Shown here: positions 8,295-15,166 of the stretch, in pieces
How the letters are laid out: each line of letters begins with the position of its first letter
Position numbering within the stretch: the first letter of the stretch is position 1
Source of the DNA: a virus
Reading direction: 5' to 3' (one strand)
Length of the DNA: 64,000 nucleotides
IMG/VR virus record: IMGVR_UViG_3300037478_000449
Coordinates: 36,219 to 100,218 of that record
Notes under the pieces: generated by a model
What the model was told of the DNA's origin: nothing
What the model saw: the letters and a program-made list of their open reading frames with translations, nothing else
Database searches by the model: none
Position numbers and translations under genes: made by a program

Positions 8295-8492
8295 TCAGAA
8301 CGGCAGGGCGGGCTGGGCGGGCTGGCCGGAGGCGACCAGGGCGAACGGGTCGACAGCGGCGTAGGCGGACTCGCGCGGCTGGTGCTGCCGCGCGCTGCGG
8401 CGGGAGTCGCGGCGCTGCTCAAACCGAGCCCGCCGCCGCTCCCGGTCCCGCCGGTCCCGGTCCGCTCCGGTGCTGGTGGTGGACGTCTTCAC
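8295..8492 (-). CDS. Small basic protein, probably leaderless
   Basis: GTG 7 nt downstream of TACAGT -10 box; ends QPALPF. Confidence 0.5.
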   Translation of the reverse strand: MKTSTTSTGADRDRRDRERRRARFEQRRDSRRSARQHQPRESAYAAVDPFALVASGQPAQPALPF

Positions 8493-8499
8493 GCTCACT

Positions 8500-8625
8500 A
8501 CTGTAGCATCTGCTATAGGACTTGCATAGGGCAGTCCCCTAGTAGATACCCGAGTAGGTACCAAGTGACAGCCATTGCTATAGCAGGTGCACCCGAAAGT
8601 CCTAGTGCGGAGCGGTACGATCCGC
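8500..8625. promoter_or_regulatory. Divergent promoter region with inverted repeats
   Basis: AT-richer; GCATCTGCTATAG (8507-8519) / CTATAGCAGGTGC (8578-8590); -10 boxes TACAGT (minus) and TACGAT (plus). Confidence 0.6.
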
Positions 8626-8627
8626 TC

Positions 8628-8816
8628 ATGGCGACCAAGACCGAGCTGATGGGCATCGAGGCGGCGCGGCTCCCGCTCGGGAAGCGGTCCGCCCTCGCGA
8701 AGGAGGAGGGCGTGCACACCGTGCTGACCCGCTTCGGCCAGCCGGAGACCGCGCTCGTGCCGATGGAGTGGTACCGGCGAGCCCGGGAAGCCCTCGGCGA
8801 GCCCACGGACCTGTAG
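8628..8816 (+). CDS. Phd/YefM-like antitoxin or DNA-binding protein
   Basis: MGIEAARLPLG...HTVLTRFGQPETALVPMEWY fits Phd pattern; leaderless ATG. Confidence 0.7.
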   Translation: MATKTELMGIEAARLPLGKRSALAKEEGVHTVLTRFGQPETALVPMEWYRRAREALGEPTDL

Positions 8817-9212
8817 ATGCAAGAGGACGCTACGCCCTGGGATGACCTTCGCCAGCGGTTCAGGAAGCCATGGGGCTGGTCCGGGGTCTACTGGCTGTTC
8901 GACCGCTCCGGCCGGCTGCTGTACATCGGCGCAGCCGAGAACCCGTACTACCGCTGGAAGCACCACGCCAAGCACAAGTCGTGGTGGCCAGACGTTGACC
9001 ACTCTCGGACCGAGGTCGAATGGGTTCGAGGCTATCGAGAGGTTCGAGAGGTCGAGCGTGCAGCGATCAGGCGGGACAACCCGCTCTACAACGTCGCAGA
9101 CGCACAGACGCGTATCCGACTCACCGAGGAGTTCCGCCTCCTCGTCAGGCAAGCTGGTGGCCAGGAAGCCGTCGAAGACCTGCTGCGGAGGCACCTCGAC
9201 ATTGCGGCGTAG
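8817..9212 (+). CDS. GIY-YIG nuclease
   Basis: GVYWLFDRSGRLLYIG...RWKHH...ERAAIRRDNPLYN. Confidence 0.85.
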   Translation: MQEDATPWDDLRQRFRKPWGWSGVYWLFDRSGRLLYIGAAENPYYRWKHHAKHKSWWPDVDHSRTEVEWVRGYREVREVERAAIRRDNPLYNVADAQTRIRLTEEFRLLVRQAGGQEAVEDLLRRHLDIAA

Positions 9213-9296
9213 CGCCCGGCTACGCGCTCTGGCGCGGTGGCGTTCGCCTTCCCGCTGCGCCTTGGTCGGCTGGCGTGGGTCGGTCCGGGTGGCCAT

Positions 9297-10073
9297 CTAT
9301 CCCACCCCCGCGAACAGGTCGAGGGCTGGTTGCCGGGGCCGGGTGGACACCATCTCCAGCAGCCGGTCCCGCCATGCCCGGGCGAAGGTGAGACAGTTCG
9401 CCTCGGTCTTGTGGCCCGGCCCGCAGCCGGGCACGTGCCGGCCGCGGAAGCTCCACGCCATCGAGTCGGCCGACCCCAGGTCGGCCGCATACGCGGCCAG
9501 CCCCTCGACCTTCACCCCGAACCCATGCAACCGCAGCCCCTGCCGGGCCAGGGTGGACACGATCAGCCCAATCTCCCCGGTTCCCTGCCGGCGGCACACC
9601 GACCCAAGCCCCACCACCGGCTCCCGGGTCAGGTCCACCCCAGCAGCGGCGAACAGGTCCACCGACCGCAGGTAGTCACCGAGCTGCCAGCCCTGTACCA
9701 CAGGCACGAACGGCAGGTCAGGCGCGAGGTCCCGCAGCCGCAGGTACGACTCCACGGTCTGCGCCTGGTGTTCGACGACAGTCAGGCCGGTCTTGGCGAC
9801 GATCCACGGCTCACACATGTGATCTTGCGGGCTGGCCCACTCCAGACGGCCGATCTCGTCCCGGTACCGCCGGACCGCAGCGGCGTACTGCTCTGGTGTG
9901 GTGCGCCATTCGCCGTAGGTCGACAACTCGGTGAAGCCGCCCGAGTCCAGCGCCCACGGCACACGCGCCCGCGGCAGCGACCGCCGACGGACGAGGCGCC
10001 GGTGTGACACGAACAGCGGGAAGTCCACCAGCTCCAGCCAGTGCGGCATGTGGGCTCCGAGCCAGAAGCGCAT
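9297..10073 (-). CDS. DpdA-like (TGT-fold) 7-deazaguanine DNA transglycosylase
   Basis: WALDSGGF, PQDHMCEP, PVVQGW, GLGSVCRR, LHGFGVK, SADSMAW; start at ATG 10073 overlapping VUT stop. Confidence 0.8.
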   Translation of the reverse strand: MRFWLGAHMPHWLELVDFPLFVSHRRLVRRRSLPRARVPWALDSGGFTELSTYGEWRTTPEQYAAAVRRYRDEIGRLEWASPQDHMCEPWIVAKTGLTVVEHQAQTVESYLRLRDLAPDLPFVPVVQGWQLGDYLRSVDLFAAAGVDLTREPVVGLGSVCRRQGTGEIGLIVSTLARQGLRLHGFGVKVEGLAAYAADLGSADSMAWSFRGRHVPGCGPGHKTEANCLTFARAWRDRLLEMVSTRPRQPALDLFAGVG

Positions 10074-10603
10074 CAGGTCACCGCCTGCCGGACCCGGCGC
10101 GGCCACCGGACCGCGGCCAGCAGCGCGACCGCGGCGAGGGTCATCCACGCCTTGCCGACGATCTGGCCGGGCAGGAACGCGAGCGAGCCGAACGCCAGCA
10201 GGAGGAAGATCACCGAATCGGCGACCAGCCCGACCGCGTTGGACGCCAGTACGGCGGCATACCAGCGGCGGCGGCGCAACGGTGAGTAGACGGCCATGTC
10301 CGCCAACTCGCTCGCCCCGAACGCCACGGCGGAGGCGACCACCAGGGCCGGTGGAGCCACCAGCGCCGAGCACCCTGCCCCGGCGGCGATCGCGGCGAGC
10401 ACCACCCACCGGCCGCCGAACTCGTGCAGCACGTCCCGCAGGGTGAACGCGAGCCCGGCGAAGTAGACCCCGGCCGGGGCCATCAGCCCGAACCCGACCG
10501 GTACCGCGCCGAACCGGACGATCGCCCAGTTGGCGGCGAACACTGTGCTGACGAAGCCGACCGCGGCCAGCAGTGCGGCGGTCCGGGTGGTTGGGGTGCT
10601 CAC
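10073..10603 (-). CDS. VUT/YhhQ-family queuosine-precursor transporter
   Basis: Multi-TM; AANW, GLAFTLRDVLHE, ASELADMAVY, SNAVGLVADSVIFL..AFG, GQIVGK. Confidence 0.88.
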   Translation of the reverse strand: MSTPTTRTAALLAAVGFVSTVFAANWAIVRFGAVPVGFGLMAPAGVYFAGLAFTLRDVLHEFGGRWVVLAAIAAGAGCSALVAPPALVVASAVAFGASELADMAVYSPLRRRRWYAAVLASNAVGLVADSVIFLLLAFGSLAFLPGQIVGKAWMTLAAVALLAAVRWPRRVRQAVT

Positions 10604-11745
10604 CGACCCACCCCCGCGAACAGGTCCGGCTGGTCGAACTTGGCAACGGAATCGGCGGCCGGTTCCGGTACGGACTCGGCTGGCCAGGCGAAGTCCGGCA
10701 ACGGGAACGCCGCCCCAGGCAGGTCCGCGAGTTGTGGGTGCAGCCGGTCATACTCAGCCTTGCCGATCTTGCCGATCAGCAGTGAGTCCCCCACTGCCAC
10801 CCGTGGCACCAGGTGTCGGGGGATGCGGTCCAGCCGCAACGGCCCCCGGATCAGGCCGGCCTGGTGGGCGAGGTGGCCTAGGTACACGGTCGTCCGCAGC
10901 CGGGCCACGGCCGCGGTGAGCGGGTCCAGCTCTACCCCATCCACACCGCCAGCGATGCGCCGCAGCGCCTCAGCCGGCGGCAACACCGGGCCACCGGTCG
11001 CGGACTTGCCGCCGCGGACCTGCCGCGGCGGCATCTCCCCGGTGGTGTACCACTGCCACAGGTAGTCGGCGGCGCGGATCAGGAAGTGGCCGGTGCCGGC
11101 GGTCGGGTCGCACAGGGTCAGCGGCTCGCCAGTGAACTCATTGGCCGCTGGCACGAGGGTCCGGTCCAGGATGAAGTCGCACACCCACCACGGGGTCTGC
11201 ACCAGCGCGTTGCCGCTGCGCCGGCCATCGGACAGTGCCTGCAACAGGTCCCCGACCAGCCAGCCGGTGATGGACCCTGGTCCCTTGTCCACGTCGTAGG
11301 CCAGCGGCGGCGCGTCACCGGCCCACCAGTCCGCCAGTGCCTGCACCGCCGCATCCGACGGGGTGCCGTCTCGCAGGTTGCTGTACCTCGGGTGCAGCAG
11401 CCACTGGGTGGCCGGATGCACACACAGCCCGCCGAATGCCTGCGCCAGCCGCACTACCGGGGTCGGCTGGTCGGTGAACCGGCCGGGCATTCCGTGTAGC
11501 CCCTTGCGCAGCCACACGTCCACCAGCCCGTGATCCTCGGCCCACGCCACAACCGTGGACAGGTAGACCCAGGTCGCGGCGACCTGCCGTCGCCGGTCGC
11601 GAGCCTCCGCGCGAGTCCCCGCTGCTGCCTCAACGCGCATCGAGTCGGCCAGCACGTCAACGTGGCAGTGCAGGGCGCGGATCAGCGGCTTGGTGAACCG
11701 GGTGTCGTCTACCGGGTTACCGGCTCGGGTAGCAGCGGTAGCCAC
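10600..11745 (-). CDS. Truncated PglX (BREX-2/Pgl methyltransferase)-like protein lacking NPPY
   Basis: QVAATWV..AEDHGL, LVGDLLQALS, ALVQTPWWVCDFILDRTL, DPTAGTGHFL, GVELDP, VAVGDSLL; ends without catalytic motif IV or TRD. Confidence 0.75.
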   Translation of the reverse strand: MATAATRAGNPVDDTRFTKPLIRALHCHVDVLADSMRVEAAAGTRAEARDRRRQVAATWVYLSTVVAWAEDHGLVDVWLRKGLHGMPGRFTDQPTPVVRLAQAFGGLCVHPATQWLLHPRYSNLRDGTPSDAAVQALADWWAGDAPPLAYDVDKGPGSITGWLVGDLLQALSDGRRSGNALVQTPWWVCDFILDRTLVPAANEFTGEPLTLCDPTAGTGHFLIRAADYLWQWYTTGEMPPRQVRGGKSATGGPVLPPAEALRRIAGGVDGVELDPLTAAVARLRTTVYLGHLAHQAGLIRGPLRLDRIPRHLVPRVAVGDSLLIGKIGKAEYDRLHPQLADLPGAAFPLPDFAWPAESVPEPAADSVAKFDQPDLFAGVGR

Positions 11746-11767
11746 CTATCCCACCCCCCGGTCCGGG

Positions 11768-12232
11768 TCAGCGGCCACGGCGACCACCCTGCCTCCGTGC
11801 CACACGTTCCTCGGCCCGCCGCTCAGCCCGGTTCGCCGACCGGTGCATCGCCGCCATGTCGCCGCGTTCCGCCTCGGTCAAGGTGATCGGCGGCGCGTCG
11901 CAGCCCGGTTCCCAGCGCTGCCCTACCAGCCGCCACCGGCACCCGTCCCGGTCGTCTGACAGGGACACCGGACGCTGGCACCGGCACGTAGCACTGGACA
12001 GCATCCGCTCCGCCAGCGCCAGCGCGGCAGCCGACGGGGACCGGTGCCGGTCGGCGATGATCCGCGCCCCCCGGTACTTCGCCGCCGCGTACCAGGTGGT
12101 CTGCCCGCAGTTGTGGCCGTCCGGTGCGCCGGGCACGTGGGGGCAGTCCCACCCGATCTCGCTCTCGGTTGCCCCGGCCCGGCCCACCAGGTCCACGCAG
12201 GCGATCACCGTGTCGGTGTACGTGTCAGCCAT
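11768..12232 (-). CDS. Hypothetical Cys-rich protein
   Basis: Start MADTYTD with GGAGG RBS. Confidence 0.6.
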   Translation of the reverse strand: MADTYTDTVIACVDLVGRAGATESEIGWDCPHVPGAPDGHNCGQTTWYAAAKYRGARIIADRHRSPSAAALALAERMLSSATCRCQRPVSLSDDRDGCRWRLVGQRWEPGCDAPPITLTEAERGDMAAMHRSANRAERRAEERVARRQGGRRGR

Positions 12233-14491: not shown

Positions 14492-15166
14492 TCACCGGTC
14501 CCACCGGCCCACCCGCAGCTCGGCCACAAACCCGGCCCAGTCGGCAGGCTCGGCAGGCGACACCACCCCCGGCCGAGTGCTGGACTCGCTCTGGCGGGAC
14601 CTCGCGCGATGGCGCGCCCGAGCTACACCCGCGCCCCGCCGGACGTTCACTGAACCCGTGACTGGTTCCAGGTGGTCAGGGTTAACGCAGGCACGGTTGC
14701 GGCAGACGTGATCGAGTTCAAGGTCGGCGGGTATCGCGCCCACCAAGTGCTGCCAGCTCCACCGGTGCGCCAGTGCGGCCGAGACGTTCGGGTCGTTGCT
14801 GTAGCGGTACGAGCCGTAGCCGCCATCTGTGCGTGCGCCGGTCCAGACCCAGCAGTCAGCGACATCGACCCGCGCCCAGAAACGCTCCTCGGCCGGTTGC
14901 CCTGCCAGGTGCAGACGGACGTTCGCGTCAGCATCCCCACGCCGCTTCCATCGCTGGTAGTGCATGTTGCAGTAAGTCCTCGCGTACTGCGGCCGGTCGC
15001 AAGGGTCCACGGTGCACGGGGCTGGCGGCCGTCGGGACGATTCGCGGATAGTCCAGACAACAGTCGGGTCCCCGTTCTTGCGCCAGCGTGAGTAGTGGGT
15101 GATGCACAAGCCCCGCGCCCGGGAAGGCTGGAGGCAGGCAGCCTCCGATGGAACACGGCGCATCAC
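14492..15166 (-). CDS. HNH endonuclease with N-terminal Cys/His repeats (homing-type)
   Basis: ARGLCITHY / ARTYCNMHY repeats; CWVWTG, AHRWSW, LDHVCRNRACVNPDHLEPVT. Confidence 0.88.
   Translation of the reverse strand: MMRRVPSEAACLQPSRARGLCITHYSRWRKNGDPTVVWTIRESSRRPPAPCTVDPCDRPQYARTYCNMHYQRWKRRGDADANVRLHLAGQPAEERFWARVDVADCWVWTGARTDGGYGSYRYSNDPNVSAALAHRWSWQHLVGAIPADLELDHVCRNRACVNPDHLEPVTGSVNVRRGAGVARARHRARSRQSESSTRPGVVSPAEPADWAGFVAELRVGRWDR

Follow-up and report, generated by a model that had tools for sequence, protein, structure and literature searches.

The DNA stretch analysed here (the window, 64,000 nucleotides) comprised bases 36219-100218 of the 100,218-bp IMG/VR virus record IMGVR_UViG_3300037478_000449 and contained a gene, P0001, for a protein of 381 amino acids (aa) that resembled the N-terminal third of PglX. 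PglX (BrxX) is the N6-adenine methyltransferase of bacteriophage exclusion (BREX) type 2, or phage growth limitation (Pgl), systems. The half-PglX gene was located on the minus strand at window positions 10600..11745, with a GTG start at 11745 and a TGA stop at 10600-10602. Its open reading frame (ORF) was intact, and its GC content at third codon positions (GC3), 0.86, was the usual coding signal in the high-GC DNA of this phage (~71% GC). The record was rated 100% by CheckV and carried portal, large terminase, capsid/protease, integrase, large helicase, Bet and Cas4-type exonuclease genes; therefore, its source was a temperate actinophage. P0001 belonged to the replication/recombination module, where it was part of a long minus-strand run with the helicase on one side and Bet and the exonuclease on the other. 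The P0001 stop and the start of the next gene shared the bases GTGA (10600-10603), and the genes that followed encoded a YhhQ-like membrane protein and the transglycosylase DpdA, not the missing pieces of PglX. Thus, the original prediction of a phage-encoded, intact and translationally coupled gene beside DNA-modification genes agreed with what we found. P0001 did not lie within a pglW/X/Y/Z defence locus: its setting was the phage replication module, and a search for PglZ, which did not extend to PglW or PglY, found none in the record.

The NCBIfam profile BREX_2_MTaseX (NF033451) matched P0001 with E=1.8e-32 and 112 bits, and the match was limited to profile positions 45-322 of 1185. This score was below the threshold of the BREX-2 PglX equivalog, for which the curated cut-off is 400 bits. 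The PglX model of PADLOC matched at 9e-31, and searches of Pfam and PHROGs with P0001 gave no match. All the motifs quoted in the original prediction as evidence of the N-terminal third of PglX were present, namely QVAATWV (residues 54-60), AEDHGL (69-74), GDLLQALS (165-172), ALVQTP (180-185), DFILDRTL (190-197), DPTAGTGHFL (213-222) and VAVGDSLL (316-323). The first part of the protein was a helical domain of the HsdM_N/BrxX N-terminal type (approximately residues 10-160; 11266..11718, minus strand), as seen from the alignment with BREX-2 PglX (PglX-2) and from an AlphaFold2 (AF2) model with helices at 15-143. It was followed by the first half of a gamma-class methyltransferase fold (approximately residues 160-340; 10726..11268, minus strand), which binds S-adenosylmethionine (SAM) in such enzymes and here had strands beta1-beta3 only. 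P0001 carried the SAM-binding motifs X, I, II and III of gamma-class N6-adenine methyltransferases (Pfam N6_Mtase/Eco57I) at 11191-11208, 11080-11109, 10921-10938 and 10777-10800, respectively, all on the minus strand. The AF2 model was built on 44 homologues and had a predicted local distance difference test score (pLDDT) of 88 and a predicted template-modelling score (pTM) of 0.87; it consisted of the helical N-terminal domain, three beta strands and a disordered tail. The top structural matches of the model were type I M subunits, type IIG/IIL enzymes and BrxX/PglX (Z 12-14 over 250-320 residues); in VIA-align, Z was 12.4-12.6 to BrxX/PglX and 14 to the PacII M subunit.

In the alignment with PglX-2, P0001 tracked motifs X, I, II and III and the III-IV linker, degenerated at the beta4/NPPY position and then stopped. 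The remnant of this linker and the degenerate position (LHPQLADLPG ... FPLPDFAWP; 10681..10743, minus strand) aligned under the 'YPG-IL..G.YH.V..NPPY' segment of PglX-2 and of relatives that retained NPPY, and the AF2 confidence fell in this region. NPPY was at approximately residue 365 in the PglX-2 sequences. The original prediction had stated that the protein stopped before NPPY and had no target-recognition region, which was confirmed: P0001 ended at residue 381 without NPPY, strands beta5-7 or the target-recognition region, and no [NDS]PP[YFW] motif was found in it or in any called protein of the phage record. The complete seven-stranded Rossmann fold with motifs IV-VIII was absent (three AF2 strands, no Pfam match). 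Since motif IV (NPPY), beta5-7 and the target-recognition domain were lost, adenine methylation by P0001 alone can be set aside. A frameshifted full-length PglX was ruled out, because the downstream ORFs 9297-10751(-) and 8295-9296(-) had no PglX signal.

A search of 5.8 billion proteins revealed >200 homologues of 340-415 aa with 50-79% identity to P0001. They came from several actinobacterial orders (Micromonospora, Plantactinospora, Streptosporangium, Sphaerisporangium, Glycomyces and a few Streptomyces) and from many metagenomic or proviral contigs. No relatives were found among the cultured INPHARED phages by megablast or tblastn, and there was no PHROG family. Residues D213, G217, T218, G219, D274 and D320 were invariant in 44 homologues, and SAM binding by P0001 was plausible from these invariant motifs. 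The ratio of nonsynonymous to synonymous substitutions (dN/dS) was 0.21-0.45 in close pairs, indicating purifying selection. The only long relatives of P0001 were BREX-2 PglX proteins, with 29-34% identity over ~280 residues. Most of the 'short' PglX-like matches in a 50%-clustered library, taken as candidate true small proteins, looked like fragments of full PglX genes and were rejected.

A maximum-likelihood tree contained three well-supported groups: the short family with a sister group that retained NPPY, the complete ~450-aa Eco57I-type phage methyltransferases (L014, L017, L018) and PglX-2. The sister proteins (L012, L013, P0172) were cut at the same place as the short family, yet NPPY was present; L040 and L041 were not rows in the tree, and NPPY together with the same truncation placed them with these forms. 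The short family was monophyletic (Shimodaira-Hasegawa-like approximate likelihood ratio test support of 99) and lay outside PglX, so the truncation was old and conserved rather than the result of a host pglX captured recently. The original prediction had proposed to check whether the truncation point was conserved, and the same truncation in >200 homologues answered that it was not recent. The nearest relatives of the family were other phage proteins. We also observed a circularly permuted relative in two loci (L015:7176-8537 and L016:7176-8537), a single ORF of 453 aa in which the NPPY half of the methyltransferase came first and was followed by the N-terminal-type domain with motifs X and I-III. 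No description of the half-PglX family was found in the literature searched.

The C-terminus of P0001 (...FDQPDLFAGVGR) contained QPDLF at residues 372-376, five residues before the end (10618..10632, minus strand). Peptides of the QL[DS]LF type are the consensus for binding the bacterial beta sliding clamp. The original prediction was right that the protein has a C-terminal tail of its own, but it overlooked this clamp-binding-type motif, which P0001 shared with DpdA. The pLDDT of the tail was <50, so that a Q-x-[DS]-L-F-type peptide was present in a disordered terminus. A QL[DS]LF-type tail was found with the strict pattern in 36 of 120 family members versus 0 of 832 other proteins from the same loci, and with the loose pattern in 45/120 versus 2/832; the family members counted were mutually related, so the significance of these comparisons is nominal only. 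The motif usually ended 4-5 residues from the C-terminus, after a linker that varied in length and sequence. The same QLxLF-type tail was found on the truncated forms that retained NPPY and on the complete ~450-aa methyltransferases, and it was absent from 45 PglX-2 sequences. In the whole phage, P0001 and DpdA were the only proteins with such a tail. Consensus peptides of this type have been reported to bind the bacterial beta clamp (PMC9690074).

The gene context pointed in the same direction. Three of 15 related viral records encoded the beta clamp DnaN, and in all three the clamp gene lay upstream of the family gene at a distance of 0.4-4 kb, and DnaB was also encoded in the vicinity. These phage clamp genes (L003:3280-4503, L004:5943-7082 and L006:6413-7540) had all three Pfam clamp domains. 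Thus, the predicted tethering of P0001 to a sliding clamp was well supported by sequence and gene context. The window phage had no beta clamp gene, therefore the target would be the beta clamp of the host. In the literature searched, we found no methyltransferase-like or DNA-modification protein with a clamp motif.

In our favoured explanation, P0001 would be a pseudo-methyltransferase that works without catalysis while bound to the clamp, most likely in counter-defence; we regard this tentatively as having somewhat less than an even chance. The protein keeps the PglX-type helical domain together with the half of the Rossmann fold that carries the SAM-binding motifs. The QPDLF peptide at the end of the disordered linker would most likely dock P0001 on the host beta clamp, which would place it at the replicating phage DNA, near the likewise clamp-tailed DpdA. 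There it would take up the position of a PglX-type methyltransferase or tie up its partners, and Pgl/BREX-2-like systems would thereby be unable to mark or sense the replicating genome.

An anti-defence function was ranked as the most likely role because P0001 keeps precisely the portion of PglX, the N-terminal domain, for which contacts with other BREX proteins have been proposed (PMC12839542). The ranking also took into account that SAM is a required cofactor of BREX defence (bioRxiv 10.1101/2023.02.27.530186), that the family was present both in phages and in non-phage elements and that BREX-2 was frequent in the host taxa. Namely, BREX-2 PglX was found in 45 of 201 (22%) sampled Micromonosporaceae genomes (the sample included an unpublished genome, G211, that was not among the 45 positives) and in 8 of 20 genomes that carried the family. 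Moreover, in the current model of Pgl, the progeny phage DNA gets marked in the first infection (PMC4365076, PMC12839542), and therefore a dead PglX look-alike at the replication fork could plausibly interfere.

Several observations weighed against this explanation. Full PglX was not significantly more common in the carrier genomes (8/20 versus 45/201, p about 0.09). With only 29-34% identity to PglX and a position outside the PglX clade, the family provided a weak basis for a mimic that fits host partners. Motifs IV and V, which are part of the canonical SAM pocket, were missing from P0001, and about half of the family had no tail. In addition, the commonest immediate neighbours of the gene elsewhere were helix-turn-helix (HTH) or sigma-like proteins, which would fit a regulatory role equally well. 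The original prediction had interpreted P0001 as a possible decoy homologue of PglX that would act as a dominant-negative mimic or sequester SAM; its view of a catalytically incomplete PglX-like fragment stood, while the picture of a captured host PglX was weakened by the separate clade and by the carrier comparison.

P0001 shared with PglX, whose solved BREX-1 relatives are 8C45, 8Q56 and 9EWZ, the helical N-terminal domain, motifs X-III and the III-IV linker. In contrast to PglX, it had one third of the length, lacked NPPY, beta5-7, the target-recognition domain and the C-terminal domains, formed a separate clade, was encoded by a phage with no PglZ and ended with a clamp-binding-type peptide. 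The small ~450-aa Eco57I-type methyltransferases belonged to the same mobile-element lineage and had the QLxLF-type tail, but their catalytic domain was complete. Similarly, the truncated forms of the sister group (L012, L013, L040, L041, P0172) had the same tail and kept motif IV, which the P0001 clade had lost. Anti-BREX proteins known from other phages include the BrxX-binding DNA mimic Ocr of T7 and the SAM lyase of T3 (PMC7261183; bioRxiv 10.1101/2023.02.27.530186). If P0001 acts in counter-defence, it would share with them a target in PglX-dependent immunity and the reliance on SAM. However, their folds and mechanisms were unrelated to those of P0001, and neither of them mimics a defence protein or is tethered to the clamp.

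The main rival explanation was that the clamp-tethered P0001, together with an adjacent HTH or sigma-like protein, couples phage transcription to replication, which we consider unlikely. In its favour, the immediate neighbour in phage-type loci was often translationally coupled to the family gene, with overlapping stop and start codons. The adjacent gene in related loci encoded the orphan protein F1, with a weak sigma-70 region-4 signal (10 loci), the orphan F7 (5-6 loci) or a double LuxR HTH protein (3 loci). WhiB genes were close by as well, and the phage-type loci also held YqaJ, RecT, DnaB and DnaN genes nearby. A precedent for such coupling is T4 gp45 with gp33 and gp55. In phage Mu, MuC is recruited through a QL[SD]LF-type motif, and the beta clamp serves late transcription (PMC12867686); P0001 likewise had a short Q-x-x-L-F peptide at its extreme C-terminus after a variable linker. 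On the other hand, the gene was kept in the window phage, where a hidden Markov model search found no homologues of F1 or F7 anywhere. The clamp motif was on the methyltransferase-like protein and not on the HTH proteins, and regulation would leave the invariant SAM-binding residues unexplained. A separate observation concerned P0170, a metagenomic relative of 478 aa with an unrelated region of 236 residues in place of the initial ~100 residues of the N-terminal domain; a fusion with F1, F5 or F7 was ruled out as the source of this foreign N-terminus.

The members of the family without a tail occurred mostly in Micromonosporaceae genomes, beside F7 (L021-L028, L035 and L037 were bacterial genomes). 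Their loci carried DUF4192, DprA-like, M23 peptidase and prepilin-peptidase-like genes and looked like conjugative or integrative elements rather than phages. Since the tail-less members were found in loci that did not resemble phages, the core domain was used by different invading elements and would serve several kinds of invading DNA. The clamp tail was an addition in the phage forms of the family.

The two genes after P0001 in the window were part of a putative 7-deazaguanine DNA modification cassette. The first of them, at 10073..10603 on the minus strand with its start overlapping the P0001 stop, encoded a Vut_1/YhhQ-like membrane protein of 176 aa (PF02592, E=9e-10), which probably imports a queuosine precursor, a role assigned from its family. 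The second, at 9297..10070 on the minus strand, encoded the DNA 7-deazaguanine transglycosylase DpdA (PF23859, E=1.6e-86), with the C-terminus ...QPALDLFAGVG. QueC was not found in the window phage, and therefore the phage presumably relies on a precursor from the host or from import. Directly after the cassette, an HNH-type endonuclease-like gene was located on the plus strand at 8817..9212 (phrog_16880, E=7e-14, and frame plot). The antisense ORF opposite to it, 8295-9296(-), was probably for the most part not a real gene. Another HNH endonuclease gene was present in the same early run at 14492-15166(-) (phrog_3593, E=1e-34), and the window phage had several homing-endonuclease-like genes.

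The last seven residues of P0001 and DpdA were identical and were encoded by an exact direct repeat of 20 nt. The first copy was at 10607..10626 (minus-strand GACCTGTTCGCGGGGGTGGG, encoding DLFAGVG) and the second at 9301..9320, at the 3' end of dpdA; the two copies flanked 1306 bp containing the YhhQ-like and DpdA genes. A homologue with 77% identity to P0001, P0002, had the tail QPDLFAGVG. Thus, given the flanking repeats, the abutting HNH gene and the tail of P0002, the cassette looked as if it had been inserted, or had arisen by gene conversion, at a pre-existing tail. In addition, a partial third copy of the repeat was found at 11737-11769. The ribosome-binding site and start sequence adjoining the repeat (GGGGGTGGGATAG + A/GTGGCC/TACC) occurred again upstream of P0001. 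The junctions suggested that modules were shuffled by recombination at G-rich sites.

This arrangement bears on the possibility that P0001 assists the phage 7-deazaguanine DNA modification as an accessory subunit, sharing the clamp with DpdA and guiding or regulating the base exchange. P0001 was in the same operon as the YhhQ-like gene and DpdA in the window and had the identical seven-residue tail, and DpdA was encoded by 4 of the 8 near-complete viral records that carried the family. However, the linkage was one-sided, because the half-PglX family was found in 0 of 28 high-GC viral records with DpdA; thus, P0001 is not an obligatory partner of DpdA. Apart from the window phage, a single lineage (L011/L038) had DpdA no more than 8 kb away from a family gene. 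The exact repeats and the HNH neighbour suggested that the cassette was recently inserted beside a pre-existing gene, and the close homologue P0002 already had the QPDLFAGVG tail. P0001 also had no homology in Pfam, NCBIfam or PHROGs to any of the Dpd components (DpdA-K, DpdL/M/N), of which DpdM is a DUF3109 protein (PMC10516641). We regard a role as a Dpd subunit as improbable. The presence of similar tails on DpdA was more general: a Q..[LM]F or QLxLxF-type peptide was found within the last 14 residues in 22 of 67 distinct viral DpdA proteins from IMG/VR, versus 1 of 1117 internal windows. These 67 homologues (loci L113-L192) covered a GC content of 0.4-0.7, and a link between DpdA and the sliding clamp was not found in the literature searched.

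It was similarly improbable that P0001 is still an enzyme, either with its half Rossmann fold completed by a dimer or a partner or with a SAM site used for cleavage or sequestration of the cofactor. The invariance of the SAM-motif residues and the sister group that kept NPPY despite the same truncation would be consistent with an enzyme. Against it, no NPPY-like protein or C-terminal methyltransferase half was found in the phage, none recurred near the homologues, the AF2 model had three strands only and stoichiometric sequestration of SAM was implausible. Finally, a phage or host methyltransferase gene in decay, with no remaining function, would account for the missing catalytic half, but this was very improbable and already contradicted by conservation, namely the intact frame, the GC3 of 0.86, the >200 homologues of the same length, the dN/dS of 0.2-0.45 and the invariant motifs, in line with the original view that the gene was not decaying.

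Counter-defence by a clamp-tethered pseudo-methyltransferase can be extended to a general hypothesis. Namely, widespread pseudo-PglX proteins of phages and conjugative elements might ride the host clamp and block the marking or sensing of replicating invader DNA by Pgl/BREX-2. We consider this broader form rather doubtful. To our knowledge, no phage inhibitor of Pgl/BREX-2 is known. If the hypothesis is true, P0001 would be the first factor identified against BREX-2 and also the first case of counter-defence by mimicry of a defence enzyme at the replication fork, and the clamp tail would be a general address label that phages use for DNA-modifying enzymes, DpdA included.

The family represents a newly found, conserved form of an established enzyme class, and its address is likely to be the replisome. 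Its conserved fragment, consisting of the PglX N-terminal domain and the SAM site, would be useful as a probe for the surface through which PglX contacts other Pgl proteins and for whether Pgl/BREX-2 acts at the fork. Moreover, such tails were found not only on the family but also on its catalytically complete relatives and in a third of the viral DpdA proteins, suggesting that the replisome serves phages as a tether for their DNA-modification enzymes.

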